Shown one piece after another: positions 12,757 through 40,655 of a stretch of DNA of 64,000 nucleotides; the stretch's first letter is position 1, and each line of letters starts with the position of its first letter. The notes below the pieces were generated by a model. That model worked only from the letters and a program-made list of their open reading frames with translations. It did no database searches and was not told the DNA's origin. This DNA comes from Bacteroidia bacterium (lineage in GTDB: Bacteria; Bacteroidota; Bacteroidia; M30B66), in contig OZ257142.1 in the NCBI GenBank assembly GCA_965279035.1, forward strand, positions 2,944,001 through 3,008,000, given 5' to 3'. A program made the translations under genes and the position numbers.

Positions 12757-12857
12757 ATGAAATCATAACATATTACAAATGTGATTCAAAAACAAATATA
12801 ATAATCCTTTTTAATCCAAAAGATAAATTATTCTATATTAAACGTATTTTATAGCCT

Positions 12858-12979
12858 AATGTTCAGCATACACCTAAAGAGCCGAACGATACTAACAGAA
12901 TGCTTTAGATTAGACGAATAAAACAAAAATACTAAGCATCAAACTCCAGAAATGCTTAGATTTGTTCGTGTGTGCTGTT
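12858..12979 (-). repeat. attC-like cassette repeat R1 (most diverged)
   Basis: Shares core AATGCTTTAGATTAGACGAATA...CAAACTCC.GAAATGC and terminal inverted arms with R2-R7. Confidence 0.8.
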
Positions 12980-12994
12980 GTGCGACGTTATGTT

Positions 12995-13414
12995 TCAAAG
13001 TATATATCCAGGAATCAAACTGTCAATAACTGCATTTTTTGTTTGTAAAAAGAATATCTCACTTTCTGATTTAACCGTGTACCAATCTTCGGTTCCATAA
13101 TTTTCAAGTCTGAACTTCCTGTGTATTTCGTTTTTTAATGATAACGTTTTATCTCGACTTATAGCGGCTTCTTCATACTTACCTTGGTTTGCAAGTGATT
13201 CTATCTCACGGTTTGTGTCTTCCACATTCCATTCAGGAAATTTATTGGCTGTAAATGATGCCAATGTTTCTTCATAATTTACTTCATAAGAAAATCTAAA
13301 TCCGGCTTTTGAACAAAAATTAATAATCCCTGCCAATTGACTAATGCTCATATTTGCATTCTCTTTGGATAAGTTTCTTATTATTTCATTTAATTGTTTA
13401 GTCGAATTAATCAT
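12995..13414 (-). CDS. Hypothetical cassette protein with UVR-like motif
   Basis: Likely start MINSTK (the track's longer start lies inside repeat R2); ANQGKYEEAAISRDK resembles the uvrB/uvrC motif. Confidence 0.6.
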   Translation of the reverse strand: MINSTKQLNEIIRNLSKENANMSISQLAGIINFCSKAGFRFSYEVNYEETLASFTANKFPEWNVEDTNREIESLANQGKYEEAAISRDKTLSLKNEIHRKFRLENYGTEDWYTVKSESEIFFLQTKNAVIDSLIPGYIL

Positions 13415-13439
13415 TGTTTGCTTTTTTATAATGTACCAT

Positions 13440-13563
13440 AACGTTTCACACACACCTGCAGAGCCAAACTTGGTGAATGAAATGCTTTAGATTAGACGAA
13501 TATAACAAGAAAAACGAATGTATCAAACCTACGAAATGCATCGCTTTGCTGGTGAGTGCTGTT
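13440..13563 (-). repeat. attC-like cassette repeat R2
   Basis: AACGTTTCACACACACCTGCAGAGCC...GCTGGTGAGTGCTGTT, 124 bp. Confidence 0.88.
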
Positions 13564-13695
13564 ACAAGATGGTAGCATTAATGGTAATTGTAAATTTGTG
13601 AATCGAAATGTGTTTTATTTGACAATCAAATTCTAAGATTGCTTTCAATATAAAGTGAATCAAAATAAAATCGAAAAAGAGATTTACTAATAAAT

Positions 13696-14936
13696 TGTAG
13701 GCTCCCCATTTTTAGTACGGTTCTAAATTACAATTTATTATCATTGATTAACTCTTCTTGGCTGGAGTGAAGCGTAGCGGAACGGAGGCCAAGAAGAGTC
13801 TGATTTTTACGTTTATACATCACTGGACTTAAGCCACCCAAAGCATCATGTGGCCTTTCTTCATTGTAGTCTTGCATCCATGTTTCAGTGATGCTTCTTA
13901 CCTCATAGAGAGATTCAAAAATATAATTATCAAGGATTCCTCCTCTAAAGGTTTTATTAAATCTTTCTATCAATGCATTTTGTGTTGGCTTTCCAGGCTG
14001 TATGTAATGAAAGTCTATTTCTTTTATTTCACTCCATTCTTTCGAAAGCTTGGCGATAAATTCAGGTCCGTTATCCATTCGTATTTTTTTAGGTTTTCCA
14101 TGTTTATTGATTAGGTGGTTTAGCACCCAGATTACTCTGCTACTTTTTAATGAATAATCTGTTTCGATAAATAATACCTCACGATTGTAATCATCTATAA
14201 CATTAAAGGATCTGAACTTGCGACCATTGCTGAGAACGTCATGTACAAAATCAATACTCCAAGTATGGTTAAATTCACTTGGTATTACGATTTGTTCTTT
14301 TACTCTTGCTGGCAAACGCTTTTTTGCCTTGCGTCTTAATGGTAGACCCATTTGCTTATAAACCCTGTGGAGGCGTTTGTGGTTTACTTTGACACTCTTG
14401 TTGCGTAAACGATAATAACTCTTCCAAAAGCCTTCTCTGGGGTGTTCAATGCTTAGTTTACTTAAAGCATCATTTAAAAACGAATCATCCTTTTGGGAAC
14501 GATAGTTTAAACTACTCCTGCTTGTTTGTAAAATACGACACGCCTTGCTTATGCCATGAGGATAATGATGCTTGAGCTCTTCTACAATCGCTCTTTTGTG
14601 GCAAGGCTTTAAAGCTTTTTTTCGATTATATACTTTGCCATATCTAGCTCTAAAGCTAAATCTGTATACATGCGCTTTAACTTTGCATTTTCCTCTTCTA
14701 GCCGTTTTATATTCTTCAACTCACTAGCCTCCATGCCACCGTATCGTTGTCGCCACTTGTAAAAAGTAGCCTTCGATACTCCATGCTCTCTGCTAATTGT
14801 TTCAACATCTTTTCCTTGTTCAAACTCTTTAAGGATCTTTGCAATCTGCGTCGGGGTGAATCTTGTCTTTCTCATATTACAGTTTTAAAATTAGAAATTC
14901 TTTTTTCAAACTGTACTATTTTCGGGGGAGCTTACA
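13696..14936 (-). mobile_element. IS3 family element (IS407-like, 1241 bp)
   Basis: TIRs TGTAGGCTCCCC / GGGGAGCTTACA; 4-bp target duplication AAAT. Confidence 0.93.
13728..14875 (-). CDS. IS3 transposase OrfAB (programmed -1 frameshift)
   Basis: OrfA 14609-14875; GAAAAAAAG slippery site; -1 frame runs into [20 protein letters not shown]. Confidence 0.9.
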
Positions 14937-15480
14937 AAATCATTAAAACCAATATAAGTAAAAATCTAATATTGAACTTTTTCAATATTACATTGATTAT
15001 ATTTATAAGTTGTTTATATTAAAATTTGATTAGAGTTGTTGATTAACGTTATTTAGTGCAGCAAATGATCCAATTAATTCTTCGTTTTGATATCTGTCAT
15101 ATTTACTTGCACTCTTAATTATGGATACCTTAATTATAATTGAAAAAATTGAGTAAATAACCCATAAGACTGGATTTGTAATAAAAACATCACCAACGAG
15201 ACCTAAGCATAGGTCAAGATATATTATATCAAAAGAGAATGTTGCGAATAGAATTGAATCAAAGGCTATCGACATTGACCAGTATTTTTTTAGGAAAGAT
15301 AAAGAATATCCATAGTTTAAATCTTGCCTTAAATGCGACCATAAGTATGCCAACAGAGGATAAACATTTATTTGTGTAACTGGGTAATAATTTGAAAGTA
15401 TAATGTGATTATTTAAATTATGTATTTCCAACAATGTATTAAACTCATTAAAATTATTATGAGTGCTATATAGTTTGAAT

Positions 15481-16851
15481 CACACCCGTCCAAGACGTTT
15501 GTATAACGAAAATACAATCCTGATTTGATGCGAGATTACTCATCAAAGAACGCTCTTTTGAAAATTAAACCCTCTATAATTTAAAAAAGGGACATTTGTA
15601 ATTCCAGTTTATCAATTTCGTCATCATCTAAAAAGGGTTTATCAAGCCATTTTTTGAGGTCAATTTTCACAAAGAGATTTAATCGAATAAAGGACACCAA
15701 ATTTGAGAGGTGCCAAGAGTGTTTTGCTTCCTTTTGAAGTGTCTTTAAAAGCAGTATGGTGATTAGTGCTGTCCAAATCTGTATCAGAACAGCATTCATG
15801 CTGGTTCCTATGAAAGACTTGATTTTCAGGTGTGTTTTGATCTCCTTGAAGAACGATTCGATGCTCCATCTACGTTTATATAGTTCTGAAATGGTCGATG
15901 CTGTCCAAGAAAAATTGTTTGTAAGAAGTTCAAGATATATCTGTTGTTCTTCATCCCAGATCTGAACCATTCGGAGCTTTTGCGGGTATTTTTCTTTTGA
16001 TTGAGGTAAACTCAAAAAGCCTTTCCAGTCGTATTGCAAGTCTGGATTTGCTTCATCGGTTGGGCTCTTAGTTCGCTCATAAAGTTCAAACTGAATGTTT
16101 TCTTTTCCTCGAATAACAAAGAATACTCCTTGTTCATCTAATTTTCTCATCCAGTTAAAATCGACATATCCTCTATCAGCTACAACAATGCTTCCTGTGG
16201 GAAATTCAATATCATGTGCTGCATTTACATCGTGCTTTTTGCCATCACTCAAATCAGCAAAAACGGGCATACAGCCGTCAAAGTCAAGGACTGTGTGAAG
16301 TTTTATAGCTCCCTTCTTCTTTCGAAATAGTGCCCAGTCGAACACTTTAAGACAAAGGTCAATCGTGGTTGAATCGAGCAGATAGATTTTACGTTTGGGA
16401 AGCAGCTTTCGGCTTGTTTTTAAGGTTGATTCAAACTGCTCATACAAGTTAAAATACATCGCTTGAAACAGCTCCCAGTTGCGATGTTGGTTATTATATG
16501 CCAACGATGATCGCCTCATGGCTTTTGACACTCCCAGATGATTTAAATCGCCTGTTGCTGATCGCATTCCATTGCAAACGTCATTTAAGCTATTAGACTT
16601 GGAAAACTGGCAAAAAACCATTGTCACAAAGTGAGACCAAGCATCATTGCCTTTACAATGTTTATTGGACTCAAACTTTTCTACTAGTTTATTGAAAGAA
16701 TCTCGCTTAATTTTTTGGAATATCTGAGCAAATAATGTGATCTTCATGCCGGAGTTGGTTTATGTTTTTGTGTCGTAACTCAAACATACCGGATTTAATC
16801 CGGACCAACTCTATTTTTTTACCCTATTTTAAAACGTCTTGGACGGGTGTG
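15481..16851 (-). mobile_element. IS4 family element (1371 bp)
   Basis: Perfect 20-bp TIR CACACCCGTCCAAGACGTTT; 9-bp target duplication AGTTTGAAT. Confidence 0.95.
15581..16747 (-). CDS. IS4 family DDE transposase
   Basis: LLDSTTI, VADRGY, YKRRWSIESFFK (YREK) motifs. Confidence 0.95.
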   Translation of the reverse strand: MKITLFAQIFQKIKRDSFNKLVEKFESNKHCKGNDAWSHFVTMVFCQFSKSNSLNDVCNGMRSATGDLNHLGVSKAMRRSSLAYNNQHRNWELFQAMYFNLYEQFESTLKTSRKLLPKRKIYLLDSTTIDLCLKVFDWALFRKKKGAIKLHTVLDFDGCMPVFADLSDGKKHDVNAAHDIEFPTGSIVVADRGYVDFNWMRKLDEQGVFFVIRGKENIQFELYERTKSPTDEANPDLQYDWKGFLSLPQSKEKYPQKLRMVQIWDEEQQIYLELLTNNFSWTASTISELYKRRWSIESFFKEIKTHLKIKSFIGTSMNAVLIQIWTALITILLLKTLQKEAKHSWHLSNLVSFIRLNLFVKIDLKKWLDKPFLDDDEIDKLELQMSLF

Positions 16852-17245
16852 AGTTTGAATATATTAAATCTAGTAATCAATCTTCTTAAATTTCGACCAC
16901 ATGAGAAACAAATTATACCAATCAAATAACCAATTACAATGTGCACTAGTATCAAGGAATTATTAAAGAAATTAATAGAGAAGAGATTTCCATTTTGGAA
17001 ATACCAAAAGTATATGCCTGAAATAACAGCAATTCCTGCAAGTAAAATTGATAAATCTAAAATTTCAAAAAAATCAGCAACTTTTGAAAATATTATTTTA
17101 AGTATTGAAGTGAAATCGTTCATGATTATATTTAAAGGTTTTAAACTTAGTTTATGTAGTTTTAAAAATCTAAATTAAGTTAATTATTTCAATTGAGTAT
17201 TAATGCAAATGCTTATTGAAAAGACTAAAAGAGCCACTTTCTTGT

Positions 17246-17369
17246 TATGTTCCGCACACACCTGAAGAGCCAAACGAGGTGAACGAAATGCTTTAGATTA
17301 GACGAATATAACAAGAAAAACCGATGCCTCAAACTCCCGAAATGCCTGGTTTTTCTAATGTGTGCTATT
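17246..17369 (-). repeat. attC-like cassette repeat R3 (terminal triplets mutated)
   Basis: TATGTTCCGCACACACCTGAAGAGCC...ATGTGTGCTATT, 124 bp. Confidence 0.88.
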
Positions 17370-17456
17370 ACCAGCTAATCCGTTTTGTACTTAAAGAAAT
17401 AGTCATTGAATTATTTGATTTCAGGAAATTCTTTGTTTATGAATAACCGAGACATT

Positions 17457-18152
17457 TCATTCAATTTCAATTACGATTCCGCCAAAATGGCGTTCTGCAG
17501 CTTTGCATGGAATTCCATTTACATAACAAATGTTACTACTATATTCTCTTTCAACATTTTTGTATTTCCCTTTCAAGCCTTGCCCGAACATGCCATCATT
17601 AAAAAACTCAATTGGTTTTCCATTTTCATCTGTTGTTTTGTCTATACAGTCTTTACAGATTTGTTTTGGATATCGATGGCTAAACCCAGTTTTGTTTAGA
17701 CAAATTGGGCATAATTGATATTCATGATTTTCACTGATTAAATATTCATGAAGCAACATTTCCAAATTCTTTGAAACATTAGCCTGTGAATATTTTCCAG
17801 TTTCCTTCCAAACTTTGTCATTTTCAAGATTCAATACTTTGTAACATCTTTCTAGAACCGACTTATGATGGAATAAATACCAATTATCGCCATTGGGAAA
17901 AGCAACATATAAATTTTCGCTGTTACTATATTTTATATTTAGAGTAAACCTTGATTTTAATTGTACTTTGTAGGTGACGTCATCATATTTTCTATTTATC
18001 ATCAAAAAATCCGCACCATTCCAATCGTCATTTAATCGAATAGTTTCCAAGCCATAATCAGCTAGAATGCCTGAAAGTTTTTGGAAATTAAAGGATTCTT
18101 TCTGTTTTGGGCTAAGATCCTCGTATTCAATCTTTTTAAAATGCAGTTTCAT
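17457..18152 (-). CDS. Hypothetical cassette protein; PD-(D/E)XK-like N-terminus plus Cys-rich C-terminal domain
   Basis: GADF...KVQLKSR; CPIC...CKDC. Confidence 0.55.
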   Translation of the reverse strand: MKLHFKKIEYEDLSPKQKESFNFQKLSGILADYGLETIRLNDDWNGADFLMINRKYDDVTYKVQLKSRFTLNIKYSNSENLYVAFPNGDNWYLFHHKSVLERCYKVLNLENDKVWKETGKYSQANVSKNLEMLLHEYLISENHEYQLCPICLNKTGFSHRYPKQICKDCIDKTTDENGKPIEFFNDGMFGQGLKGKYKNVEREYSSNICYVNGIPCKAAERHFGGIVIEIE

Positions 18153-18278
18153 GTGTTTTAAGTTTGTTGTATGCTTATTAAATGTAAAAATAAACCATTT
18201 GCGTTTTTCAAACTCATCATGGTTACTCGCAGTAAAAAACGAATATGCTTAAGTCGACCGAGATCGCGGCTTTGCTGG

Positions 18279-18402
18279 AACGTTCCGCACACACCTGAAG
18301 AGCCAAATGAGATGAACGGAATGCTTTAGATTAGACGAATATAACAAGAAAAACGGATGCCTCAAACTCCCGAAATGCTTGGCTTTGCAGGTGTGTGCTG
18401 TT
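18279..18402 (-). repeat. attC-like cassette repeat R4 (best preserved)
   Basis: Arms GCACACACCTGAAGAGCCAA (18287-18306) and TTGGCTTTGCAGGTGTGTGC (18379-18398) complementary 18/20; AAC and GTT ends. Confidence 0.9.
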
Positions 18403-18439
18403 AGTGGTAGTTTACTATTTCGTTACTTGTAATATCGGT

Positions 18440-18862
18440 CTACTTCAATGCAAATTTAAATGGTAATGTCCACTCGGAACTAATGGTTCTTCTCTTATTG
18501 TCTTTAATTTCTATAGCTGGATTCCATTTAGGCATAATTGAAACAATTCTTAATGCTTCGTTGTCATATGGAGGACATATTCCTTTCAGAATTTTAGGGT
18601 TATTTATTTTTCCGGTTGTGTCTATTCTAAATGTTATAAATACAGTTCCATGCTCACAACCATCTGCGATAGGCCATTTAATATTACGTCTAATAAAAGC
18701 TATTAAGCTGTCTTCACCACATGGAAAACTTGGTGCTGGATTACTTATTAAAATAGTTTTTGTCGAATCAAGTAATTTGTCTTGCCTAGTCGCTTGAGCA
18801 TGACAAAGTGTCTGCAAACTTGAAAGCAAAATAAATGTCTGTATGATGATTGTCTGTTTCAT
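18440..18862 (-). CDS. TonB C-terminal domain protein (cassette gene)
   Basis: Likely start MKQTII; PSFP.G, GTVFITFRIDTTG, EALRIVSIMPKWNPA. Confidence 0.85.
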   Translation of the reverse strand: MKQTIIIQTFILLSSLQTLCHAQATRQDKLLDSTKTILISNPAPSFPCGEDSLIAFIRRNIKWPIADGCEHGTVFITFRIDTTGKINNPKILKGICPPYDNEALRIVSIMPKWNPAIEIKDNKRRTISSEWTLPFKFALK

Positions 18863-18929
18863 TAAATTACCACTAACCTTTAGACTTGCAGTCAAAGATT
18901 TTAGCTGATAAATTTACCATAAATAAATG

Positions 18930-19085
18930 TAGTTAACCGAAAGCAGGGCGACCTATGCGCTAACAAGGATAATAGGCCTATGGAACGATATAGTGCCCTA
19001 CTTTCTGGTTATTTAAGCCTCAGATAGATATTCGGGATTCAGGCCCATTATAAAGGTTTTGAGGTACAAATAACCATTGGTTAAT
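18930..19085 (+). ncRNA. Predicted IS110 bridge RNA
   Basis: Two stem-loops with internal loops: CGCTAAC and GGAACG match the target; ATAGATAT and TAAAGG match the donor junction; ends approximate. Confidence 0.7.
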
Positions 19086-19107
19086 CCGTTTTGCTAATTA
19101 TAAAATT

Positions 19108-20121
19108 ATGAATTCAAACCAGAACAACCAAAAACATTTTGTAGGAACAGATGTTTCAAAAGAAACACTTGATGTAACGATCTTTTTCAACTCCTCAATG
19201 CATTTTCATCAGCAATTTTCAAATGACAGCAAGGGCTTTAAGCAATTGCTGAAATGGCTAGAAACCTATCCTGAATTCAGTTTTGAAAATACTTTATTCT
19301 GCATGGAACATACAGGAATTTACACTCGTCAGTTTGTTGAATTCCTCCTTTCGAAAGAAGCAAAGGTATGGATGGAGTCGGCACTGCATTTAAAGCGTTC
19401 TATGGGCATGACAAGGGGCAAAAGTGATAAGATCGATTCACTGCGAATTGCACGCTATGCAATGACTCATCAGGACCAAGCCAGGCTCGTAAATCTTTCC
19501 AATAAAACATTGTTGCTTATCAAAGACCTTATGAGTGCAAGAGAGCGGAGTAAAAAGGCCTACCAGTCCATAAAAGTCTCCATTGATGAAATGCAAAGAG
19601 TCGATGCAGCAACAGCAAAAGAGCTCTTGAGGATTAATAAACCAGCCCTTTCTGGATTATTGAAAAGCAAGATGGCGTTGGAAAAACGGATGATGGAATT
19701 AATAGCGATGGATCCTGAACTGAACGAGCTATTTGAGCTGGTTACTTCTGTCAAAGGTGTGGGTAATGTATTGGCAACCGAACTGATTGTTTATACACAT
19801 GCATTTAAAAGAATGGATGAAGCCAAACAACTGGCCTGCTATTGCGGAGTCGCTCCTTTTTCTCATACTTCCGGCACGAGTGTGCATGGAAGAAATGGAA
19901 CTTCAAACTTTGCTAACATGGGACTTAAATCAACTTTACACTTGGCTGCACTTTCTTCAATTCGTTACGTACCTGAGCTTAAAACATATTATCAGAGGAA
20001 AGTAGCTGAGGGAAAATCCAAAATGAGCGTAATTAATGCCGTGCGGAATAAACTGTTGCAACGTGTCTTAGCAGTGGTAAAAAGAGGAACGCCTTACCAA
20101 GAAAATTATCAAGTAAATTAA
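19108..20121 (+). CDS. IS110 family recombinase (DEDD)
   Basis: VGTDVSK, CMEHTG, KSDKIDS, SVKGVG, YCGVAP...SGTS. Confidence 0.95.
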   Translation: MNSNQNNQKHFVGTDVSKETLDVTIFFNSSMHFHQQFSNDSKGFKQLLKWLETYPEFSFENTLFCMEHTGIYTRQFVEFLLSKEAKVWMESALHLKRSMGMTRGKSDKIDSLRIARYAMTHQDQARLVNLSNKTLLLIKDLMSARERSKKAYQSIKVSIDEMQRVDAATAKELLRINKPALSGLLKSKMALEKRMMELIAMDPELNELFELVTSVKGVGNVLATELIVYTHAFKRMDEAKQLACYCGVAPFSHTSGTSVHGRNGTSNFANMGLKSTLHLAALSSIRYVPELKTYYQRKVAEGKSKMSVINAVRNKLLQRVLAVVKRGTPYQENYQVN

Positions 20122-20142
20122 TTTGGAAAACTCATAGATATC

Positions 20143-20261
20143 GTTCCGCACACACCTGAAGAGCCAAACGAGGTGAACGAAATGCTTTAGATTAGATGAA
20201 TATAACAAGAAAAACGAATGCTTCAAACTCCCGAAATGCTTGGCTTTGCTAGTATGCCGTT
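20143..20261 (-). repeat. attC-like cassette repeat R5 (its AAC displaced to 18875-18877 by IS110)
   Basis: GTTCCGCACACACCTGAAGAGCC...GTATGCCGTT. Confidence 0.88.
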
Positions 20262-20889
20262 AGCGGTTGCTATCGTCCCAAAAGCCAATATCAATTAGAA
20301 CCCTACTTTCAAACTCAAATTGAGTTAACTTAATTTTATCTACCGTCAATTCTTTACGAATAGGATCGTAATACATTCCTTTAATTCCAACTTTACATGC
20401 TAAAAATTGATCAGCTAAAAAATCACCTACTTTTGTATTTCCTCCATTAATATCTTCTGAAGCAAAATATCCGTTTGGCCCGCAAGTCAAAATAAAGTTT
20501 CCATTCTTTGCATATTTATCCATTTTCTTTTTTTGAACAATTAACCCACTGTTATTTCCTACTTTCTTAGCCTGGAAAATAATGGATTTCGTGGTTTTAA
20601 TATTTGTGTCTTTATCCTCAATATCTAAGGATATAATAGAGTCCGCTCCAATTCGTTTTTCTTCAGCGCCTGGTCCTCTGCCTTGAAATTTCTTATAGTA
20701 AATTATCCAATAATAAGTTTTGCTGTCAATTTTCATAGTTTTCTTTTCTGACCTAAGATTTCCTAAATAATCTCCAACTACTGAATCTTCTTCTGCATTT
20801 GAATAATCCCATCCCTTTTCGCCTCTTCTCGAACGTTTCTTTATGTGATTTTTTATAATGTCTAATAATTCTTGTGGAAGTTCATGCAT
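20260..20889 (-). CDS. Hypothetical cassette protein, possible PD-(D/E)XK nuclease fold
   Basis: EKRIGAD...IIFQAKK; stop codon TAA lies in the CTAAC end of the repeat, as is common in integron cassettes. Confidence 0.6.
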   Translation of the reverse strand: MHELPQELLDIIKNHIKKRSRRGEKGWDYSNAEEDSVVGDYLGNLRSEKKTMKIDSKTYYWIIYYKKFQGRGPGAEEKRIGADSIISLDIEDKDTNIKTTKSIIFQAKKVGNNSGLIVQKKKMDKYAKNGNFILTCGPNGYFASEDINGGNTKVGDFLADQFLACKVGIKGMYYDPIRKELTVDKIKLTQFEFESRVLIDIGFWDDSNR

Positions 20890-20918
20890 AAGATAATGAT
20901 TTTAAAATGGTTACCGTT

Positions 20919-21042
20919 AACGTTCCGCACACACCTGAAGAGCCAAATGAGATGAACGGAATGATTTAGATTAGACGAATATAACAAGAAAAACGGATGC
21001 CTCAAACTCCAGAAATGCATGGCTTTGCTGGTATGTGCTGTT
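20919..21042 (-). repeat. attC-like cassette repeat R6
   Basis: AACGTTCCGCACACACCTGAAGAGCC...GGTATGTGCTGTT, 124 bp. Confidence 0.9.
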
Positions 21043-21105
21043 ATTCTGTGGAGCGCTTAATCGAAAAGATAATCGAACTTTACTACAAACTAATTAAAAA
21101 GAAAC

Positions 21106-31234: not shown

Positions 31235-31269
31235 ATTGAAAAGATGGGCGGCAAAAGTAAACAAATAGG

Positions 31270-31440: not shown

Positions 31441-32307
31441 TTAAGAAGTTGTATTTCTGTTGATATTTCCTGAATTCCAGTTATATATGGTCATAGAAGG
31501 ATTTTGATTTCTTTGGTTATTCACTTTTTCATATTCAGTAGGTGTTAGCATGCCTAATTCACTGTGTGGTCGTTCATTATTGTAAAGATCCATTGCCTTT
31601 TTTGCCATCTCATTGAGATTGCTTTTGGTTAGATTCCATTGAAGTAAGTACTCGTTTTTTATGATGCCATTTATTCGTTCAACATAAGCATTTTCTTGTG
31701 CTATTGACGCCATACTGATTCGTATTCCTTTGCTTTTTAGCATCTCTTTATGCATCGTGCTGATGTATTGTGAACCTCGATCAGAATGAAAAATGCAATT
31801 ATCTAAATCGTGCCCTTTCCTTATTTTAAAGGCTTTTCTAAGTGCTTTGATATTTTCCTCCGCTCTTAAGCTTGGAGACAGATGTAGAGCTAATAAGCGC
31901 CTTGAATAGACATCTTCAATACAGATTCCATAATGATGTGCATGCTCTACATCGAGATAAAATATGTCAGATTGCCAAAGCATATTCACATCATTAATCG
32001 TTATTCCATTTATCAGATTGTCATATATCTCAACGCGTTGAGACCAAGTCGTTCGTATTGGATTTCTCTTCTTCTTAACCTTATATCCGTACCTAAAACC
32101 AATCCGCTCAAAAGCATCCCTACCTATTGGATGGCGTTGTGGATCCATAAAATAGATCTTTCTACAACCCATTTGGCGATGATTATGACGCACTTTTGAT
32201 ATGTAACGAACGATACTTTCTTCCACCTTTAATTGGTCGCGACTTCGTCTTTCACTCTTCCAAAGTGCTTGCTTACTAAGGCCTGCCACTTCTAACAGAC
32301 TCTTCAT
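31441..32307 (-). CDS. IS3 transposase OrfB
   Basis: WQSDI, FHSDRGSQY, ENAYVERINGIIKNE. Confidence 0.92.
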   Translation of the reverse strand: MKSLLEVAGLSKQALWKSERRSRDQLKVEESIVRYISKVRHNHRQMGCRKIYFMDPQRHPIGRDAFERIGFRYGYKVKKKRNPIRTTWSQRVEIYDNLINGITINDVNMLWQSDIFYLDVEHAHHYGICIEDVYSRRLLALHLSPSLRAEENIKALRKAFKIRKGHDLDNCIFHSDRGSQYISTMHKEMLKSKGIRISMASIAQENAYVERINGIIKNEYLLQWNLTKSNLNEMAKKAMDLYNNERPHSELGMLTPTEYEKVNNQRNQNPSMTIYNWNSGNINRNTTS

Positions 32308-32726
32308 TTTGTACCCGTGCTTTTGTCCTTTTGTGGATCGGAACCAGAGTAAGGCTGGTTTAATAAATTTTTTTTTAAATCAGTTTGGAACTCCTCATTT
32401 GCTAACTCAATGACCTTGCTCAATAAATCAAGTTCCATCTGTTTTCGGCCCAATGCGGCTTCCAATTCACGGATGCGCTGCTCAAGCTCTTTGCTTTTGT
32501 ATGATTCGCTTTGCACTTCCACTACTAAGATTTTTCCTCTCTTCAAATATCGACTATATTGATAAATCCATCGATAAACTGAAGTTATTGTTACTCCTAG
32601 TTCCTGGGCTACTTTAGATACTGAAGCCACTCCGGATTCAATATCCTTAACTGTTTGACGCTTTAATTCTTCACTAAAAACTCTTCGTGGCCGAATTACT
32701 TCTTTGCGATTTAAATGCTTTTTCAT
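32304..32726 (-). CDS. IS3 transposase OrfA
   Basis: RRVFSEELK...SVSKVAQELGV...VYRW; leucine zipper; ATGA overlap with orfB. Confidence 0.9.
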   Translation of the reverse strand: MKKHLNRKEVIRPRRVFSEELKRQTVKDIESGVASVSKVAQELGVTITSVYRWIYQYSRYLKRGKILVVEVQSESYKSKELEQRIRELEAALGRKQMELDLLSKVIELANEEFQTDLKKNLLNQPYSGSDPQKDKSTGTK

Positions 32727-32811
32727 GTCCCGTTTTTTAAGTTGATTTTGGTCAACCTATTTCAGTCACGGACAAGTGGAAATTAAAAAAGTAGAGAATG
32801 AGGAATAGGAT

Positions 32812-32846
32812 TGATAATAAAAGTCAACCTATTTTAGGCAAGGACA
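32812..32846. repeat. Orphan copy of the IS3 terminal inverted repeat
   Basis: Reverse complement of 31337-31372 apart from one base indel. Confidence 0.85.
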
Positions 32847-33314
32847 AGTATTTAAGAATATACAATTGCCTTATTAGATTTACTTAAACAACAAATAGTA
32901 TTGAAGGACAATCTACTATTAAAGCTGCATAAAAGGATTTATATAACATCCTTTACGATATTGATTTATGGGGATTGAAATAAAATCAATTACATTAATC
33001 CAGCATCGATTCTTCGTAAAGACAAATCGAGTTGTTCTAAAAATTGACGAAGCCGTTCACTAATAGGTTTTGATACACTAATCGTCTTATTCCCTGCTGA
33101 TTGATTGGAATAATTTTGATTATTCGATTGAGCGAATACAGAATGCAGTTCTGGATTTGAATTCCCTGAGCTTATCATATACAAAGTTCTTAGCGTATCC
33201 GTGTTGCATCTTGAGTTCGAAACGTCGATTTGGTTTAATTCGTATGTCGTAAAGAAAAATCTCGAAAAAAAGCCAACATTTACTCGATTTGATTCATTGG
33301 GCTGAAATTATACT

Positions 33315-33908
33315 ATGTGGCATTTATACCTTCTTGTTTTTCTTATTGCATTTTTATTTGATGTAGTTCCATTGCCATTGCCCCCTGCTTTTACAGCCAT
33401 GATATTTTTACAGATTTATTTTAAGCTGGATGTTTGGACGGTCATTTATTTTGGTGTTGCTGGTTCTGTATTAGGCAGATATATTCTCACTTTATACATT
33501 CCTCGTGTTGCTGGTACTTTATTTAATCCAGCTAAAAATGCTGATGTTCAATACCTTGGTAAAAAGTTAAAAGAAAAAAGTTGGAAAGGACATTTGGTCA
33601 TTTTCACGTATTCGCTTTTACCCTTACCAACAACACCTTTATTTATTGCAGGTGGAATGGCGAAAATGAAACCTTATCTCATTTTACCTGGATTTATTAT
33701 TGGGAAATTTATCAGTGATTCGATAAGTGTTTTTGCTGGAAAATATACTGCCGATAATTTACCTGAAATTTTTAGTGGAATTATTTCCTGGAAATCAATA
33801 ACATCAATCGTTGTTGGAATATTGCTCTTGTTTTCATTGCTTTTTATAAATTGGCGTGAGTTATTTCAGTCTAAAAAATTCAAACTCAATTTTAATATTT
33901 GGAAATAA
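33315..33908 (+). CDS. Membrane protein (DedA/VTT-like)
   Basis: Hydrophobic; GSVLGRY, LLPLPTTPLF. Confidence 0.65.
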   Translation: MWHLYLLVFLIAFLFDVVPLPLPPAFTAMIFLQIYFKLDVWTVIYFGVAGSVLGRYILTLYIPRVAGTLFNPAKNADVQYLGKKLKEKSWKGHLVIFTYSLLPLPTTPLFIAGGMAKMKPYLILPGFIIGKFISDSISVFAGKYTADNLPEIFSGIISWKSITSIVVGILLLFSLLFINWRELFQSKKFKLNFNIWK

Positions 33909-34326
33909 ACTACTTCTTCGATAAACAAGTTATTAGTAAGGCGGGTTGGCATCATCCTAAGACAACCTATCGTTAACCAAAAGCAATATTAATTTTAAAT
34001 AAATAGGCAGCCTTTCCTGCAAAAAAGTTTCAATCTCCCTTCCACTTCACTAATGACGATAATTTCCAACATTATAATTTTCCTTTCAGTAATGTTATCA
34101 AGGTAAGCCGTATAGTTAAGCACAAGGAGTGAAAAATTCTACGTAGATAAATTTCACTCGACAATTAAACATTCAGAAAACAAAATACCCCACTTTTCAG
34201 CGGTGTGTTTCCACGTTTCATCACATTTATAAACATCAATATTTAATCAATAAGTTGTTCAAAATAATTTTGACTAAATCTTAATATACTTACAATCAAC
34301 ACCATAAATATATTTTCAATACCTAA

Positions 34327-34359
34327 TTTGCAAATACATAATATTCTTATGTATGTTTG
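34327..34359 (+). promoter_or_regulatory. Promoter and palindromic operator of PadR gene
   Basis: TTTG-N21-TATGTTTG; ATACATAA-TATTC-TTATGTAT inverted repeat at 34334-34354. Confidence 0.7.
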
Positions 34360-34363
34360 TGTT

Positions 34364-34708
34364 ATGTATTCATCAGAGCTAATAAAAGGAACTTTAAAAA
34401 CGATAGTTCTAAAGTTGTTATCCGAAACAAAACATATGTACGGATATGAGATTACCCAAAAAGTAAAAGAGTTAACTGATTCTAAAATTGTTATAACAGA
34501 AGGTGCACTTTACCCTTTGCTTCATCAGCTGGAAGCTGAAGGAACAGTAACAACAGAAACGGTTAACATTGGAAAACGCGTAAGGAAATACTATACACTC
34601 ACTCAAACCGGAAATGAGCGGGCTAAAGAAAAGCTTTATGAATTTGCCGATTTCATTAACACAATGAATATTTTACTTGATCTCAAGCCAAGCGTAAAGT
34701 ATGTTTAG
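34364..34708 (+). CDS. PadR family transcriptional regulator
   Basis: LIKGTL, MYGYEI, EGALYPLLHQLE, RKYYTLT; ATG at 34364. Confidence 0.92.
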   Translation: MYSSELIKGTLKTIVLKLLSETKHMYGYEITQKVKELTDSKIVITEGALYPLLHQLEAEGTVTTETVNIGKRVRKYYTLTQTGNERAKEKLYEFADFINTMNILLDLKPSVKYV

Positions 34709-35954
34709 TTTAAACGATCAGCAAATCGCCTTTATTGAAAACGATATTAGAGTCAGGGGGATAACTTCTCCTGACTTAAATATCGATCTGTTGGATCATA
34801 TCTGTTGCTTAATTGAAAACAATCTGGATGAATGCAGGAACTTCGAAACGGTATATCAAGAAACTCTTTTGCTTTTTGGCGAAAAAGGATTGAAAGAAAT
34901 ACAAGAAGAAACAAATCGACTACTCACATTTAAACACTATTATATCATGAACTCAACAATGAAAATTAGTGGATACGCTTCATCATTGATGATATTATCT
35001 GGAGCATTTTTTAAATATAAACACTGGCCTGGAGATGACGCTTTAATGCAATTGGGAGTATTTATTCTTGCTGTACTTTTTTTACCATTGCTCTTTATTT
35101 TAAAATTTAAATCGAGTGCAGAAAATAACAGAAGTATTGTTTTAAGTATGATTGCCGGTGTTGCATCAGGTCTACTTTGTTTTGGTGTATTATTTAAAAT
35201 TATGCATTGGCCTTATGCAGAAATGTTGACTGTTTCTGGCTGTTTACTTCTAATCTTGGGTTACCTACCGATTTATTTTATTAGTATTTATAAAAACACA
35301 ACCAACAAAATAAATGCAACGGCAACGGTAATTATAATTATAGCTGGAGTGGGATTGTTTGTAGCTCAATCCAACTCCGGAATGTCAAGACCAGTATCAG
35401 ATAGTTTTTGGAGAGGGGTAACAGAAAGTGATCAGCTTTTATCTTTTATCAAAAAAGAGAATCAAACTTTTTATGAAAATGTAGATAAGAAAATTGTAAT
35501 TGAAGATTCTCCAAAATCAATGAATTCTATTCATCTTTTAAAATCAAAAACTGACGAGTTGGTTGATTATATTGATGAAATGAAAATAAAGGTAATTTCC
35601 GCTTCAGAACAAATCTCGGAAGAAGATGCCAGAAAAATTAAATTGGATGACTTGCGCTCATCAAGTGGAGAAGAAATTATTCATTCAATTTTGTTTGACA
35701 ATACTAATTCAAAGTATAGTGCTGTTGAATTGAAAAATAAAATTGAAAATTATAAGCAATTTGTTAATGCAAATTCGAGTTCAATTGATTTATCCATTTT
35801 AAAAACAGGAATGTTGAATATGAATGATGAACAAGTTTCCTGGGAACAATCCAATTTCGATCAGTTGCCAACAGCATTAGTTGTGTTTAATCTTATTCGA
35901 ATAGAGTTAGCTATAAAGAATATAGAGAGTGCGGTTTTAAGTCAATTAATTTAA
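34701..35954 (+). CDS. PadR-associated membrane protein with GldL/GldM-like segments
   Basis: LLDHICC N-terminal domain; repeated FK..HWP TM units; C-terminal SWEQSNFDQLP. Confidence 0.65.
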   Translation: MFSLNDQQIAFIENDIRVRGITSPDLNIDLLDHICCLIENNLDECRNFETVYQETLLLFGEKGLKEIQEETNRLLTFKHYYIMNSTMKISGYASSLMILSGAFFKYKHWPGDDALMQLGVFILAVLFLPLLFILKFKSSAENNRSIVLSMIAGVASGLLCFGVLFKIMHWPYAEMLTVSGCLLLILGYLPIYFISIYKNTTNKINATATVIIIIAGVGLFVAQSNSGMSRPVSDSFWRGVTESDQLLSFIKKENQTFYENVDKKIVIEDSPKSMNSIHLLKSKTDELVDYIDEMKIKVISASEQISEEDARKIKLDDLRSSSGEEIIHSILFDNTNSKYSAVELKNKIENYKQFVNANSSSIDLSILKTGMLNMNDEQVSWEQSNFDQLPTALVVFNLIRIELAIKNIESAVLSQLI

Positions 35955-36038
35955 AAATACCCTTCGGAAATACTCACTATAACAATTAGATAACAAGTTA
36001 CAGCATAAAATTCCCTTCTTTAAAACAAAACCTTCACA

Positions 36039-37850
36039 ATGAAAACCTCTCTTTTGTTAACTATCATTTTGCTATTTAGCTCGGTTGTTTTTTCCCAAAC
36101 AAATTATTCTTCCGAAACACTCGAAAAAATAAAAGAGGTCGAAAACAATATTACAGGAAGAATTATCCTTAATGATGACCAACCAAGCACGATTATAGAG
36201 CGGATGGCTAAATACAATTTAAAAGGCATGAGTATCGCGGTTATCCAAGATTACAAAATTGTTTGGGCAAAAGGTTATGGCTGGGCCGATGAGGAACAGA
36301 AAATACCTGTAACAACCGAAACCTTATTTGAACCAGGATCAATAAGTAAATCATTGAACGCTCTTGGCATTTTAAAATTAGCACAAGAAAAAAAAATTGA
36401 TCTTAATACTGACATTAATACCTATTTAACTTCCTGGAAATTCCCATACGATTCACTTTCAAAAGAAAAAAAAATAACATTAGCTCAGATACTTAGCCAT
36501 ACTGCAGGGTTATCAGTGCATGGTTTCCCTGGTCATGATATCAACGGACCAATTCCAACGGTGTTTGATGTTTTAGACGGAACAAAACCCGCTGTTACAC
36601 CTGCTGTCCGAAGTATGTTTGAACCCGGTTTAAGGTTTGAGTATTCAGGAGGAGGCACTACTATTTCGCAATTACTGCTTATGGATGTTACGAAGCAAGC
36701 ATATGCTACCTGGATGTATGAAAATGTTTTAAAACCAATCGGTATGGAAAATAGTTCTTTTGCACAGCCTCCTGCAAAAGATAAGCAATTGTTGTGCGCC
36801 TCGGGTTTCTATTCCGATGGCTCTCCTGTCTCAAACAAATTTCATGTTTACCCAGAGCAGGCAGCAGCAGGTTTGTGGATGACGCCAAGCGATCTATGTA
36901 ATTATATTATTGACATGCAATTGGCTTATCAGGGCAAACCATCTAAAGTATTGACACCTGAAATGGTAAAACTGCATTTAACAACTTATAATGACGGACC
37001 TACATCACTTGGTTCCTTTATTGAGGACCACAATGGAGCTAAATATTTTGAGCACGGAGCTGCCAATGATGGTTTTTGTGGAGACTTTTATGGCAGTTTA
37101 GAAGGCGGCTATGGTGTAGTTGTATTTTTAAATAAGGAAGATCAAAAAATTTTACCCGAAGTAATAAATAGTGTTGCGAAAGCATACAACTGGAAAAATT
37201 TTTATCACGAGCCAATAAGGAAAAAAAGCATCGAGCTTGACGATAAAACACTTAAGTCTTATGAAGGTATTTATTTATTTGATGATGGAACATGGGAAGC
37301 TATTACTAAAAGAGATGGCGAATATTATTACTATCTATCCCATACATATCTAAAAATGTATTATAGTGCTCCCACTGTTTTTTTTACTGAATTTTTCTCA
37401 GTTGCAAGAGAATTTTTAAAAGATGAAAAAGGAAACATACTTGGTTATACTAGCAATGTAGATGGTAATACAAATCCAAAAGCCACAAAGATTAGAAGTA
37501 CGGACACGTTAATGGGTTCAGTTGAATTTTTAAACGACATTGGGTGGTATTTGTTAGAAAATAAACAATACGATGTGGCATTGGAGTATATTAAACGTGG
37601 TTTACAGCTATACCCTAAGAACTTGCTTTTGGAAGGAAATCTTGCACATTGTTATTTATTTAAAAACGAATATGACAAGGCCATAGAAATTTACAAAAGA
37701 AATTTAACGCAAACTATTGAACCTTCTTTTTCGTGGGAGAATATGATAGAACAGGATTTTGAATTTTTTAAAGCAAACAAGTTCCCAACAGATCAGATGG
37801 ATAAAGTAAGTAGCGAATTAAAAATTAAAAAAACTATATCAAGCGAATAA
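36039..37850 (+). CDS. Serine hydrolase (beta-lactamase family) with C-terminal TPR
   Basis: SISK (SxxK), YSG, HGA motifs; TPR-like helices. Confidence 0.88.
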   Translation: MKTSLLLTIILLFSSVVFSQTNYSSETLEKIKEVENNITGRIILNDDQPSTIIERMAKYNLKGMSIAVIQDYKIVWAKGYGWADEEQKIPVTTETLFEPGSISKSLNALGILKLAQEKKIDLNTDINTYLTSWKFPYDSLSKEKKITLAQILSHTAGLSVHGFPGHDINGPIPTVFDVLDGTKPAVTPAVRSMFEPGLRFEYSGGGTTISQLLLMDVTKQAYATWMYENVLKPIGMENSSFAQPPAKDKQLLCASGFYSDGSPVSNKFHVYPEQAAAGLWMTPSDLCNYIIDMQLAYQGKPSKVLTPEMVKLHLTTYNDGPTSLGSFIEDHNGAKYFEHGAANDGFCGDFYGSLEGGYGVVVFLNKEDQKILPEVINSVAKAYNWKNFYHEPIRKKSIELDDKTLKSYEGIYLFDDGTWEAITKRDGEYYYYLSHTYLKMYYSAPTVFFTEFFSVAREFLKDEKGNILGYTSNVDGNTNPKATKIRSTDTLMGSVEFLNDIGWYLLENKQYDVALEYIKRGLQLYPKNLLLEGNLAHCYLFKNEYDKAIEIYKRNLTQTIEPSFSWENMIEQDFEFFKANKFPTDQMDKVSSELKIKKTISSE

Positions 37851-38225
37851 AGAAAGAGAAAAGAAATAGTGTAAGCTTCATAAAACGGGAAAGGCTGCAT
37901 AACCTTACTCGAATTGAATTAAAATAAATATCCCGTTTTGCCGAACGGGTTTTTTATTGTGAAAATTTATATGTAATGCAAAAAAATCATACTGCAAGGA
38001 CAGCTAAATTTTTCATAGCCAACTATGGAGCTTTGACTTGCCATCTTCTTCCTTGCATGTGTATGCGTAGTGTGAAAAGAGAAAGTTTCCCTTCACTCCT
38101 GTAAAAATTAAAACTGAGACCGCTCATGTCAAGACAACAAAGCAAAAAAAGAACATTTCGGAAAAGGTAACTATACTTCTCTGTAGACACATTAACGAAA
38201 GTAATAATACATCCGCCCAACTTAT

Positions 38226-38345
38226 AACAGCACACACCATCAAAGCCAAGCATTTCGGGAGTTTGAGGTATTCGTTTTACTTGTTATTTTCGTCTAATCT
38301 AAAGCATTCCATTCACCTCATTTGGCTATTATAGTGTGGAATGAC
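38226..38345 (+). repeat. attC-like repeat R7, solo and opposite in orientation to the array
   Basis: AACAGCACACACC...CATTTCGGGAGTTTGAGG...CGTCTAATCTAAAGCATT...TTTGGC is the reverse complement of R1-R6; distal end degenerate. Confidence 0.85.
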
Positions 38346-38464
38346 AGCATCTAATAAATTCCTATTATTTTTAATTGATTAGGTCCATTTGGTGAATTAG
38401 GAAAAATCAAACATTCTGGATTTTAGTACTGTTCATCCATTTCTACTTTAATCTTATTTGAATC

Positions 38465-39556
38465 CTATTCTACTGTTTCCCACCAAGAAGAATATGTCTT
38501 AAGTTCTTTTAATACACTCAATTCACCAATCATCGGATGAATAATAGGCATATTGAATTTTTTACTTTCAGCAAGTACACGTTTGATCGGTTCATCCCAC
38601 GCATGCATCGATAAACTGAATTTAGCCCAATGAACAGGAAGCAGCACTTCGGCTTTAAGATCGATTGCCGCAAGAACCACTTCTTCGGGCATCATGTGAA
38701 TATGACTCCAGTTTTTATTGTACTGCCCACATTCGAGTATGGCCAAATCGAATGGTCCATATTGTTCTCCTATTTCTTTAAAATGTGAATCATATCCACT
38801 ATCACCGCCAAGAAAAAGTGAGAAGCTAGGTGTTTTCAAAACATAGGAAGTCCATAAGCTGGATTGGCGCCGAATTCCTCTTCCAGAAAAATGCCGCGAA
38901 GGTGTGTAGAATATGTCAAAACCAGATTCAAGGGTATGCGATTGATGCCAATTTTTTTCCAAAATGATTTCCTTAGAAAATCCCCAATGTTCGAGGTGAG
39001 CACCAACACCGAGAGGACAAATCACTTTATTTACGCGTGGTAGAAGTGCTTTTACAGTTTTATAATCTAAATGATCCCAGTGATCGTGGGTAATGATTAG
39101 ATAATCGATATCCGGAATATCGGAAACCTGAAAGGCATCGCTTCCTTTGAAACTTCGCGTTGTAGAAGCAATGGGAGATGCTGTTCCATTGAGTACTGGA
39201 TCGATTAAAAATTTCTTCCCATCTACTTGAAGAAAATAGGAAGAATGTCCAAACCAAACGAGACAATTTTCATTGGGCGAAATTGATTTTAAATTGGTTT
39301 TGATTGTAGGAATTGGAGATGAAGGAACGCTACGTTTGTCTTTGTTTAAAAGGAAATCGCGCATAACCGAAAACACAGTTGCTCCATTCGTAAAATCGGG
39401 AGTTGGACTGCTATTTTGAAACTTTTTCTTCTGATAATTAGGAGATTGTTCTATTATATTTAATCGATCGCCTTGTGGATGTTTCCCAAAACGTTTGGTT
39501 TGAAGAAATGCATAAATGCCAATACAAAAAAGAATCGGTATTAGGAGATAGAACAT
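38465..39556 (-). CDS. MBL-fold metallo-hydrolase (RomA/NAPE-PLD-like)
   Basis: WFGHSS, THDHWDHLD, GGDSGY, PVHW. Confidence 0.9.
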   Translation of the reverse strand: MFYLLIPILFCIGIYAFLQTKRFGKHPQGDRLNIIEQSPNYQKKKFQNSSPTPDFTNGATVFSVMRDFLLNKDKRSVPSSPIPTIKTNLKSISPNENCLVWFGHSSYFLQVDGKKFLIDPVLNGTASPIASTTRSFKGSDAFQVSDIPDIDYLIITHDHWDHLDYKTVKALLPRVNKVICPLGVGAHLEHWGFSKEIILEKNWHQSHTLESGFDIFYTPSRHFSGRGIRRQSSLWTSYVLKTPSFSLFLGGDSGYDSHFKEIGEQYGPFDLAILECGQYNKNWSHIHMMPEEVVLAAIDLKAEVLLPVHWAKFSLSMHAWDEPIKRVLAESKKFNMPIIHPMIGELSVLKELKTYSSWWETVE

Positions 39557-40115: not shown

Positions 40116-40550
40116 TTAAAGGAATGATTCATTGAACACTATGGAATGTTGATTTACAAATTGTTTAGTCCAAGATTTAATTTGATTTCTTACTGAACGA
40201 AATGATTGCATGATTTCATTTTCAGTTCCTAAAGCCTTTGCTGGATCGGGAAAATTTTGATGAATTCGAATGGCTTTGCCGGAAAAATAAGGACAGTTTT
40301 CATTGGCATTATCGCATACAGTAATGATATAATTGAATTCAATTCCTAAATATTCATCCAAAACAGTGGAGGTATGATTTGAAATATCAATACCGTCTTC
40401 TTTCATAACAGCAATTGCACGTTGATTCAGTCCATGCGCTTCGATTCCAGCTGAATAGATTTGAGCTTTATTTCCCAAGAAATGTCGAAAATATCCTTCG
40501 GCCATTTGGGATCGACAGGAGTTTCCAGTGCAGAGAATGAGGATGTTCAT
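40116..40550 (-). CDS. arsC: Arsenate reductase (LMW-PTP type)
   Basis: CTGNSCRSQMAEG, TVCD...CP, DPA; ars context. Confidence 0.92.
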   Translation of the reverse strand: MNILILCTGNSCRSQMAEGYFRHFLGNKAQIYSAGIEAHGLNQRAIAVMKEDGIDISNHTSTVLDEYLGIEFNYIITVCDNANENCPYFSGKAIRIHQNFPDPAKALGTENEIMQSFRSVRNQIKSWTKQFVNQHSIVFNESFL

Positions 40551-40551
40551 T

Positions 40552-40614
40552 TAATTACGGATTTTCAATTACGAATTGGCAATTACGAATTACGAATGAT
40601 CAATTACGAAATGG
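40552..40614. repeat. Heptamer tandem tract (AATTACG/AATGATC)
   Basis: CAATTACGAATTACGAATGATCAATTACGAA. Confidence 0.75.
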
Positions 40615-40655
40615 GAATTGAGGTACGTGCATTTGAAATGACTTGGCTGAAGTGT

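Follow-up and report, generated by a model that had tools for sequence, protein, structure and literature searches.

The locus

The stretch of Bacteroidia DNA analysed here (64,000 nucleotides, positions 2,944,001 to 3,008,000 of contig OZ257142.1, assembly GCA_965279035.1; hereafter the window, in which position 1 is the first letter) contains, between two convergent genes, a block of three co-directional genes that ends in one copy, R7, of a repeat otherwise present as a six-copy array elsewhere in the window. On the basis of its sequence, the block 33929-38347 is probably a single gene cassette of an integron-like system of Bacteroidota that was inserted alone, outside an array, and has since become immobile. 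The place where it landed was most likely a secondary site in the spacer separating the two convergent genes, and such a spacer is a place where an insertion does little harm. The features on which the analysis rests are the following, with open reading frame abbreviated as ORF and insertion sequence as IS.

33315..33908, + strand: left flanking gene, a 197-aa hydrophobic protein, outside the cassette (ORF list)
33917..33928, + strand: left half of the target site, ending in ATAAACAA immediately 5' of the crossover G
33929..33944, + strand: putative cassette start, G|TT plus the cassette-specific arm, GTTATTAGTAAGGCGG, complementary to 38213-38228
33945..34364, + strand: non-coding leader of about 0.4 kb 5' of the PadR gene, with no ORF of 60 aa or more
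34328..34708, + strand: PadR-family transcriptional regulator (Pfam PF03551)
34701..35954, + strand: membrane protein of 417 aa with GldL_N-like and GldM_1st-like domains (Pfam)
36039..37850, + strand: secreted serine hydrolase of 603 aa, beta-lactamase/penicillin-binding protein fold with C-terminal TPR repeats (Pfam)
37932..37949, no strand assigned: terminator-like G+C-rich hairpin with a T run on both strands, 3' of the hydrolase gene
37960..38212, + strand: spacer of about 250 nt from the terminator to the repeat
38213..38228, + strand: cassette-specific outer arm, CCGCCCAACTTATAAC, ending in TAAC, the extended R'' box of R7
38225..38347, + strand: R7, an attC-like site of about 126 nt (nhmmer and covariance model)
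38465..39556, - strand: right flanking gene, a metallo-beta-lactamase (MBL)-fold hydrolase, convergent with the cassette (Pfam PF12706, 131.6 bits)
12857..21043, - strand: reference array with six sites (R1-R6), cassettes and several IS elements, without a recombinase gene

R7 and the repeat family

R7 aligns over its full length with the six array copies. Its nhmmer score, with a profile made from the seven copies, is 120 compared with 106-139 for the array copies, and its covariance score is 96.7 bits (E 1.8e-19) compared with 92-141, using a model that was built from 30 sites of three subtypes and run unfiltered on the window. R7 lies on the + strand after three + strand genes and the array lies on the - strand, the order of gene and then repeat being identical in the two; the first-pass annotation of this DNA, which had placed R7 behind the PadR, membrane protein and hydrolase genes in the proper orientation, is upheld by both the alignment and this order.

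Within arrays, the site subtypes have in common a length of 124-128 nt, TAAC/GTTA ends and a conserved centre, and they differ compensatorily in their inner stems; TAAC...GTTA frames nearly all of the 30 aligned family sites. When pairing was counted on an alignment that had not been fitted to structure, 84.7% of cells were paired compared with 32-38% for slid partners, 17 of the 23 stem pairs were changed on both sides, and none of 500 shuffles reached the observed values. The sites therefore fold as a hairpin with compensatory changes, the support for which comes from covariation, since the folding energies of single sequences are unremarkable (z from -1.75 to +0.9). Judged by sequence, the repeat family has the architecture of integron attC sites except for a long, cassette-specific outer stem and the conserved centre. 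No Rfam family was found on the repeats.

Outside the window, the 20-nt core of the repeat with one mismatch allowed was found in 6 of 401 sampled Bacteroidota genomes, as single hits and compared with 3 for a reversed control, which is chance level, and it had no match in viral_contigs. The same core is present in at least 119 metagenome contigs. True repeat copies occur in 85 of these 119 loci (228 profile hits, 180 of them scoring 90 or more); the other 34 hold the 20-mer without the repeat and were excluded from later counts. Repeats on the same strand are mostly spaced by 565-2356 nt, which is the size of gene cassettes.

The 3' part of R7 is decayed. The site keeps its TAAC end but has CAT in place of GTT at the other, and one of four pairs is retained in the R box. 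The sequence follows the consensus up to 38327 and departs from it from 38328 onward, with 10 of 20 bases different, and the crossover triplet reads G|CA rather than G|TT; other copies of the repeat in the source organism keep the consensus past 38327 (loose ends at 38327). Judging by depth, that organism has roughly eight repeat copies in addition to those of the window. Of the 23 stem pairs R7 retains 15, as does R1, compared with 18-21 in R2-R6, and the degenerate distal end described at first pass is in this respect genuine. The cassette end had then been placed at 38345: that it lies at R7 holds, while the exact coordinate does not, the family model putting the crossover G at 38347. Since it has neither a partner site on its upstream side nor a crossover site on its downstream side, the cassette can most likely no longer move.

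Start and end of the cassette

When the 16 nt before R7 are reverse-complemented, 13 of the 16 agree with 33929-33944, exactly where and as closely as the first-pass annotation had described, and this is the sole match of at least 13/16 in the window on either strand, the arm itself excepted; base composition predicts 0.011 such matches per 4.3 kb. The general rule implied by this pair, by which the start of a cassette is complementary to the arm before the site at its own end, was examined in 116 cassettes of metagenome arrays, each lying between two full sites, by comparing the 16 nt from the upstream crossover G with the reverse complement of the 16 nt that end in TAAC before the downstream site. 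The best register fell exactly at the crossover G in 110 of the 116 cassettes, and 78 scored 13-15 of 16. Among 76 distinct pairs, the match frequency is 91-100% at positions 1-9 and 12-15 and 47% at position 10. Position 11 matches in none of the 76: the start always has A there, and the reverse-complemented arm almost without exception has G. The state at this position, A opposite C or a one-base bulge variant, is repeated in the arrays of three unrelated genomes. Extrahelical bases in attC sites serve the choice of strand or register, and by analogy the position-11 mismatch may do so as well.

The pair formed by R7 and 33929 conforms to this rule position by position: it is mismatched at positions 6, 10 and 11, which leaves 12 matches at the 13 informative positions together with the position-11 signature. 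When 141 foreign arms were run over both strands of the window, a single match of this quality was obtained in 18,048 kb, equivalent to 2.4e-4 per 4.3 kb. Given its fit to the rule and the rarity of equal matches, we regard 33929 as the genuine start of the cassette terminated by R7. Complementarity that is specific to each cassette would be the footprint of a G|TT crossover in a circular intermediate, and R7 carries it.

Over all loci, 200 full sites were evaluated. A cognate start directly after an upstream site was present for 128 and no start was detectable for 64, many of which are at contig ends or have the bulged arm variant. The remaining 8 have a start and no upstream site; five of these lie within 28 nt of a contig start, and the others are a site in one metagenome locus (L185), R4 and R7. 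The start belonging to R4 is parted from R5 by an IS110-family element (about 18878-20141, transposase 19108-20121 on the + strand) that sits exactly between the R5 crossover G and the next cassette start at 18877. In the window, the position-11 state is seen at the pairs 18877/18400 and 33929/38228.

Recombinase and related arrays

No protein of the window is a recombinase of the kind that accompanies related arrays. At a threshold of E 1e-5, the site model matches 40 of the 151 Bacteroidota genomes sampled, and five array regions fetched from such genomes hold 60 sites. In three genomes (G017, G128 and G052) a tyrosine recombinase is encoded directly upstream of the first cassette of a large array, on the same strand as the cassettes. 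These proteins have 310-355 aa, Phage_integrase and SAM_4 domains in the architecture of IntI and Xer, and 72-73% mutual identity. On the integron integrase model TIGR02249 they score 197-211 bits, where the cut-off is 265, and align in two pieces; relative to IntI4 (PDB 2a3v) they have 15 residues in place of 58 (residues 188-245), a segment that we take to be the IntI-specific additional domain, and archaeal XerA aligns with them in one piece. A classical IntI integrase is absent from the window, and the array-linked recombinases fall below the cut-off that defines one. A close homologue of the recombinase (E 1e-106 or better) occurs in 15 genomes, 14 of which belong to the 40 with site matches.

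The arm rule, including the A at position 11, extends to the arrays of G017 and G128, in which 22 of 32 consecutive pairs match at 12/16 or better, and in both genomes the cognate start of the first cassette lies about 100 nt past the recombinase stop codon. In these relatives an attI-like site is, as far as sequence can indicate, present next to the integrase gene. In loci L226-L240, for example L227 and L226, the region of about 100 nt after the recombinase gene has an inverted repeat around a conserved CTATCTACCC...TTTGGGTGTATA and ends in TATAAAnnA|GTT; the region between the recombinase stop and the first cassette is a candidate attI with a hairpin of its own.

Two other sequences were considered as recombinases of this system. 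A weak in-frame tblastn match to the catalytic part of the array-linked recombinases (window 10221-10628, - strand, 24% identity, E 0.007) lies within a 1275-aa ORF with Ig/PKD domains and is probably spurious. In the metagenome locus L125 a tyrosine integrase adjoins an array of the same repeats; having a SAM_5-type N-terminus and 25% identity to the array-linked recombinases, it was rejected as the cassette recombinase and is read here, from its sequence, as a putative island integrase.

Solitary state and target site

An unfiltered covariance search of the window recovered the seven known sites only (best non-family E 0.18), with no further site beside or upstream of 33929, in agreement with the first-pass view that this cassette stands alone outside the array. 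The closest of the other sites is 17 kb from R7 and has its end at 21043; there is none in 21044-38224 or downstream. R7 is the only attC-type site of its surroundings, which contain neither another att site nor an integrase, and this is the state described for isolated cassettes (SALIN) of classical integrons.

The sequence into which the cassette would have been inserted has a recognizable form. Twelve recombinase-proximal junctions of related arrays, found in 12 genomes, have TATAAAnnA|GTT in common, and the junction in the window reads GATAAACAA|GTT. With a weight matrix made from these 12 junctions (G052 was excluded, its first-cassette junction not having been located, as were G116 and G136, the loci being too short), only 2 of the 2370 GTT sites in the window reach the score of this junction. 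The chromosomal target 5' of 33929 is, by this measure of sequence, similar to the attI-like junction of related arrays. At the boundary with the host the left junction is G|TT and the right one, within the decayed stretch of R7, is G|CA.

Genes of the cassette and of its flanks

The PadR protein scores 72.1 bits on PF03551, above the gathering score of 27, which places it in the PadR family; the NCBIfam PadR models reach it only below their cut-offs. Its start is probably the ATG at 34365 and not the TTG at 34328, as judged from the sequence and from the Pfam domain, which begins at residue 27 of the TTG frame. The leader at 33945-34364 presumably carries the cassette's own promoter and operator, as suggested by its position; a scan for the sigma-70 consensus, which is ill-suited to Bacteroidota promoters, gave nothing above shuffled sequence. 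The start of the membrane protein gene, as read from the sequence, overlaps the PadR stop by 8 nt, and its product matches PF12081 (62 bits) and PF22827 (34.5 bits). The hydrolase gene begins 85 nt after the membrane protein gene and encodes a signal peptide, a PF00144 domain (154.9 bits) and matches to TPR families. Assignment of this protein to the class C beta-lactamases was rejected at 71 bits on the NCBIfam class C model compared with a cut-off of 415, and its sequence places it in the wider PF00144 serine hydrolase fold only. In the spacer 37960-38212 the ORFs are all of 76 aa or less, and the one that was checked in Pfam had no match.

On the left, the stop codon of the 33315-33908 gene is 20 nt ahead of the cassette start, and neither Pfam nor NCBIfam gave a family for the 197-aa product. 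On the right, the stop codon of the MBL-fold gene is 117 nt from the end of R7. The MBL-fold protein has 543 relatives in genome_contigs, the best at 60% identity, and in the 80 loci of relatives that were examined neither the 197-aa gene nor the NUDIX gene has a homologue. None of the loci fetched for comparison is similar to the leader or the tail of the cassette or to either of its flanks.

Cassettes with more than one gene, anticipated at first pass, do occur in arrays of this family: one (L116, duplicated in L122) has 4383 nt, three ORFs and an arm match of 14/16, and another (L113) carries a pair of genes for a kinase and a PP2C phosphatase, also with an arm match of 14/16. Contigs of a peat metagenome cover 34457-36313 with 110 differences and 36336-37697 with 96, and contig pieces from a second organism, organism A, extend over parts of 34307-37605; these copies of the operon are about 93-94% identical to that of the window, and by this coverage the three genes travel together elsewhere. 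In another array region (G045; L222, 372-1052 and 7503-8084) there are two genes for PF00144-like hydrolases, 23-27% identical to that of the window, and judging from these sequences such hydrolases may be recurrent cassette cargo.

Proposed mechanism and alternative explanations

The scenario that we favor is as follows. A tyrosine recombinase would exchange strands at the 3'-terminal G|TT of a folded site of about 126 nt. A free circular cassette would have one complete hairpin, and its integration would split the outer arm, leaving about 15 nt at the start of the cassette and the complement just before the site at its end. A 4.4-kb circle with the PadR gene, the translationally coupled membrane protein gene, the hydrolase gene and its own terminator would have recombined not with an array but with a chromosomal GTT that is located in the spacer of two convergent genes and whose upstream bases mimic the attI-like core. 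The recombinase would have acted in trans, the window having no gene for one. R7 would later have decayed in its 3' inner arm and at its crossover triplet and, with R7 in this condition and no partner site upstream, the cassette would no longer be excisable, having become a resident operon that is probably regulated by PadR. The integration at a secondary site and the self-regulation through PadR, both of which the first-pass annotation had supposed, we infer, as we do the free circle, the action of a recombinase in the source organism and an insertion rather than a deletion.

Several observations weigh against this scenario. The matrix score of the target is 6.9, well below the 12.1-16.9 of true junctions, and the right junction is G|CA instead of the G|TT or G|WT expected of a clean insertion, although, with 10 of the 20 bases of its stretch off the consensus, this junction is not readable. 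The R7 pair is mismatched at position 6, where 99% of the family's pairs are complementary. The site arm lies 362 nt past the last stop codon, beyond a terminator, and this distance is longer than in most array cassettes. The array-linked recombinase is absent from the window and from the 119 metagenome loci, and in the same 119 loci the operon, which the first-pass annotation had proposed to look for within repeat arrays, was not found inside any array and the hydrolase was not found at all. In two loci (L108 and L128) homologues of the membrane protein, accompanied in L108 by a PadR gene, are located beside a small array and not inside it. Neither an empty site nor a closed circle was observed: the only runs covering the whole stretch, four from a single sample, show an uninterrupted contig, and no read-run contig connects 33928 with 38348 or the end of the cassette with its own start. 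At 80% likeness, little or nothing covers the flanks and the non-coding cassette ends in the peat metagenome or in organism A. Because only contigs were compared, these results are uninformative either way.

As to the loci L108 (6383-10483) and L128, the PadR protein there is 52% and the membrane protein 29% identical to those of the window, and the genes are convergent with a mini-array of two Fic-domain cassettes, the sites of which belong to the same family as R7.

The block could instead be what is left of an array after a deletion or inversion between a preceding attC-like site and a chromosomal pseudo-site, or after an IS-mediated rearrangement, no circle having been inserted. The opposite strand does carry an array of the same family at a distance of 13 kb, in which the first cassette (that of R6) lacks a cognate start anywhere in the window; IS elements are dense, the array containing IS3, IS4 and IS110 copies and an IS3 element at 31441-32726 having about 7.6-fold depth; and excision between attC and a genomic site with loss of DNA is among the events reported for classical integrons (bioRxiv 10.1101/2022.09.11.507474). 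This origin would nevertheless require separate events on the two sides, because the right neighbour is an ordinary convergent gene and not another cassette. Moreover, the left junction falls exactly at G|TT of a site similar to the attI core, which a random deletion would not produce, and neither boundary shows an IS end or a remnant of a repeat, so that we regard a rearranged array as unlikely.

A very improbable explanation is that the GTT at 33929 is a true attI whose recombinase gene has been lost, the cassette being the last member of its array. The nine bases before the crossover match the junction of G128 at eight positions and fit the consensus of the 12 junctions, but the attI-like regions of relatives are non-coding stretches of about 100 nt with an internal palindrome, directly after the recombinase gene, whereas here a membrane-protein gene, intact and unrelated, ends 20 nt ahead of 33929. 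The matrix is unmatched in its upstream part there, with the score given above, and nothing in the window resembles a recombinase fragment apart from the weak match in the adhesin-like gene. To the idea that R7 is the solitary, decayed site of a short or lost cassette located past the terminator, with the operon being ordinary chromosome and the match at 33929 a coincidence, we attach hardly any credence. The strong terminator and 250 nt of non-coding DNA between the hydrolase gene and R7 would be compatible with it, as would the base composition of the block, which is the same as that of its flanks, and the occurrence of plain 12/16 matches twice within 8 kb upstream. Against it stand the empirical rate at which matches obeying the family rule arise (2.4e-4 per 4.3 kb, as above) and the properties of the match itself, which begins with GTT, has the invariant A at position 11, is intergenic and lies at one of the two most attI-like GTTs of the window; in 37851-38212, moreover, there is no candidate start for a shorter cassette. 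Insertion of a single cassette into a secondary site followed by decay of R7 is thus the reading that we retain as probable.

Other features of the window

A 49-nt stretch from the 3' part of tRNA-Met is repeated exactly and in direct orientation at 6588-6636 and 24424-24472, the tRNA-Met gene itself being at 24426-24500 (- strand). The 17.8 kb bracketed by the repeat contain the cassette array, the gene for the 1275-aa adhesin-like protein, a LuxR regulator and several IS elements; by its sequence organization, the segment is a tRNA-integrated island without a remaining integrase. In the runs that include the window, the IS3-family element at 31420-32748 (two ORFs, 31441-32726, - strand) is covered about 7.6 times as deeply as its flanks, which indicates several IS3 copies in the genome, and the repeat bin of the runs contains about 14 further copy-equivalents. 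Runs of a 7-nt unit (ATTACGA-like, in a 14-nt register) flank an ACR3 arsenite-efflux gene (40656-41693, - strand) at 40547-40624 and 41665-41749, and a 34-nt palindromic repeat occurs three times at 42747-42929, in the spacer ahead of the gene at 42974-43348. RNA genes include a Flavo-1 RNA (3182-3261, - strand, 47.8 bits) and a Bacteroidales-type small signal recognition particle (SRP) RNA (56243-56349, - strand, 97.1 bits). The ABC-F protein is 71% identical to one of Flavobacterium and 69% identical to one of a Prolixibacteraceae genome, identities low enough to suggest a lineage without a close representative.

Implications

The locus offers an example, at the level of sequence, of a complete and self-contained operon that would have been captured as one cassette and then domesticated off the array. 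Two practical rules follow from the comparison: the 15-nt split outer stem with its obligatory position-11 mismatch maps the boundaries of a cassette even where there is no neighbouring site, and TATAAAnnA|GTT, common to the attI-like sites and the off-array target, predicts landing places. More speculatively, and with doubts that exceed our confidence, the system might move whole regulated operons, beyond single genes without a promoter, to any GTT that is preceded by a short mimic of the attI core, decay of the arm then making them resident. If this were true, a sizeable share of the accessory operons of Bacteroidota could have arrived as cassettes and would be recognizable by the 15-nt split arm with the position-11 mismatch even after the hairpin has faded. 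Standard searches define integrons by the IntI insert and find almost none in Bacteroidetes (PMC9024848). The match of the site model to 40 of 151 Bacteroidota genomes, set against this near-zero count, indicates that the reach of cassette-based gene flow in Bacteroidota is probably underestimated.

Relation to known systems

Complete integrons are very rare in Bacteroidetes genomes, IntegronFinder 2.0 reporting only one (PMC9024848). A review lists integrons in Bacteroidota. Within the texts and excerpts reached by our literature search, no printed description of this Bacteroidota integron-like system was found. Apparently undescribed in the same material are a recombinase that lacks the IntI insert, a split stem of 15 nt in which one mismatch is fixed, a target resembling the attI-like core and a regulated cargo of three genes.

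Sedentary chromosomal integrons have uniform, long attC sites, and the repeats of the Vibrio cholerae superintegron are about 120 nt in length. The Bacteroidota arrays are similar to superintegrons of this type in having co-oriented cassettes, similar imperfect palindromes of about 125 nt, AAC...GTT ends with a G|TT crossover, and one recombinase gene at one end of the array, beside attI. They differ in that the recombinase gene is co-oriented with the cassettes and its product is without the segment that corresponds to IntI4 residues 188-245, that the sites are conserved in the centre and the inner stem while the outer stem is specific to each cassette, and that A and C are invariably mismatched at position 11 of the outer stem. 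The array of the window has, in addition, a likeness to CALIN elements, which are attC clusters without an integron integrase (PMC9024848): it contains six sites in 12.8-21.0 kb, with no recombinase within reach.

IS elements of the IS1111-attC group of the IS110 family target attC sites. The IS110-family element of the window likewise sits at a site crossover, and the array of G128 (L216, L217) contains five copies of an IS110-family transposase gene. The transposases of the window and of G128 are only 29% identical; their positions suggest that IS110-family elements target these hairpins site-specifically.

Insertion of cassettes away from the array at GWT (attG) sites, giving rise to the isolated cassettes known as SALIN, has been published for classical integrons (bioRxiv 10.1101/2022.09.11.507474). 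The inference drawn at first pass, that cassettes also integrate at GTT or GWT sites other than att sites, is for this reason less novel than had been assumed. SALIN and the R7 cassette have in common a single cassette with an attC-type site, away from array and integrase and joined to the host at G|TT, which in the R7 cassette is seen at the left junction; for such a cassette excision is expected to be hard and domestication is open. The two differ in the recombinase family linked to the sites, which here is without the IntI insert; in the type of site, with its 15-nt cassette-specific outer stem; in the target, which is similar to the system's own attI-like core and not merely a GWT; and in the cargo, a 4.4-kb unit of three genes that includes a regulator, the event itself being read from sequence. 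The R7 cassette is, in these terms, a known kind of event in a variant and little-described system of Bacteroidota.

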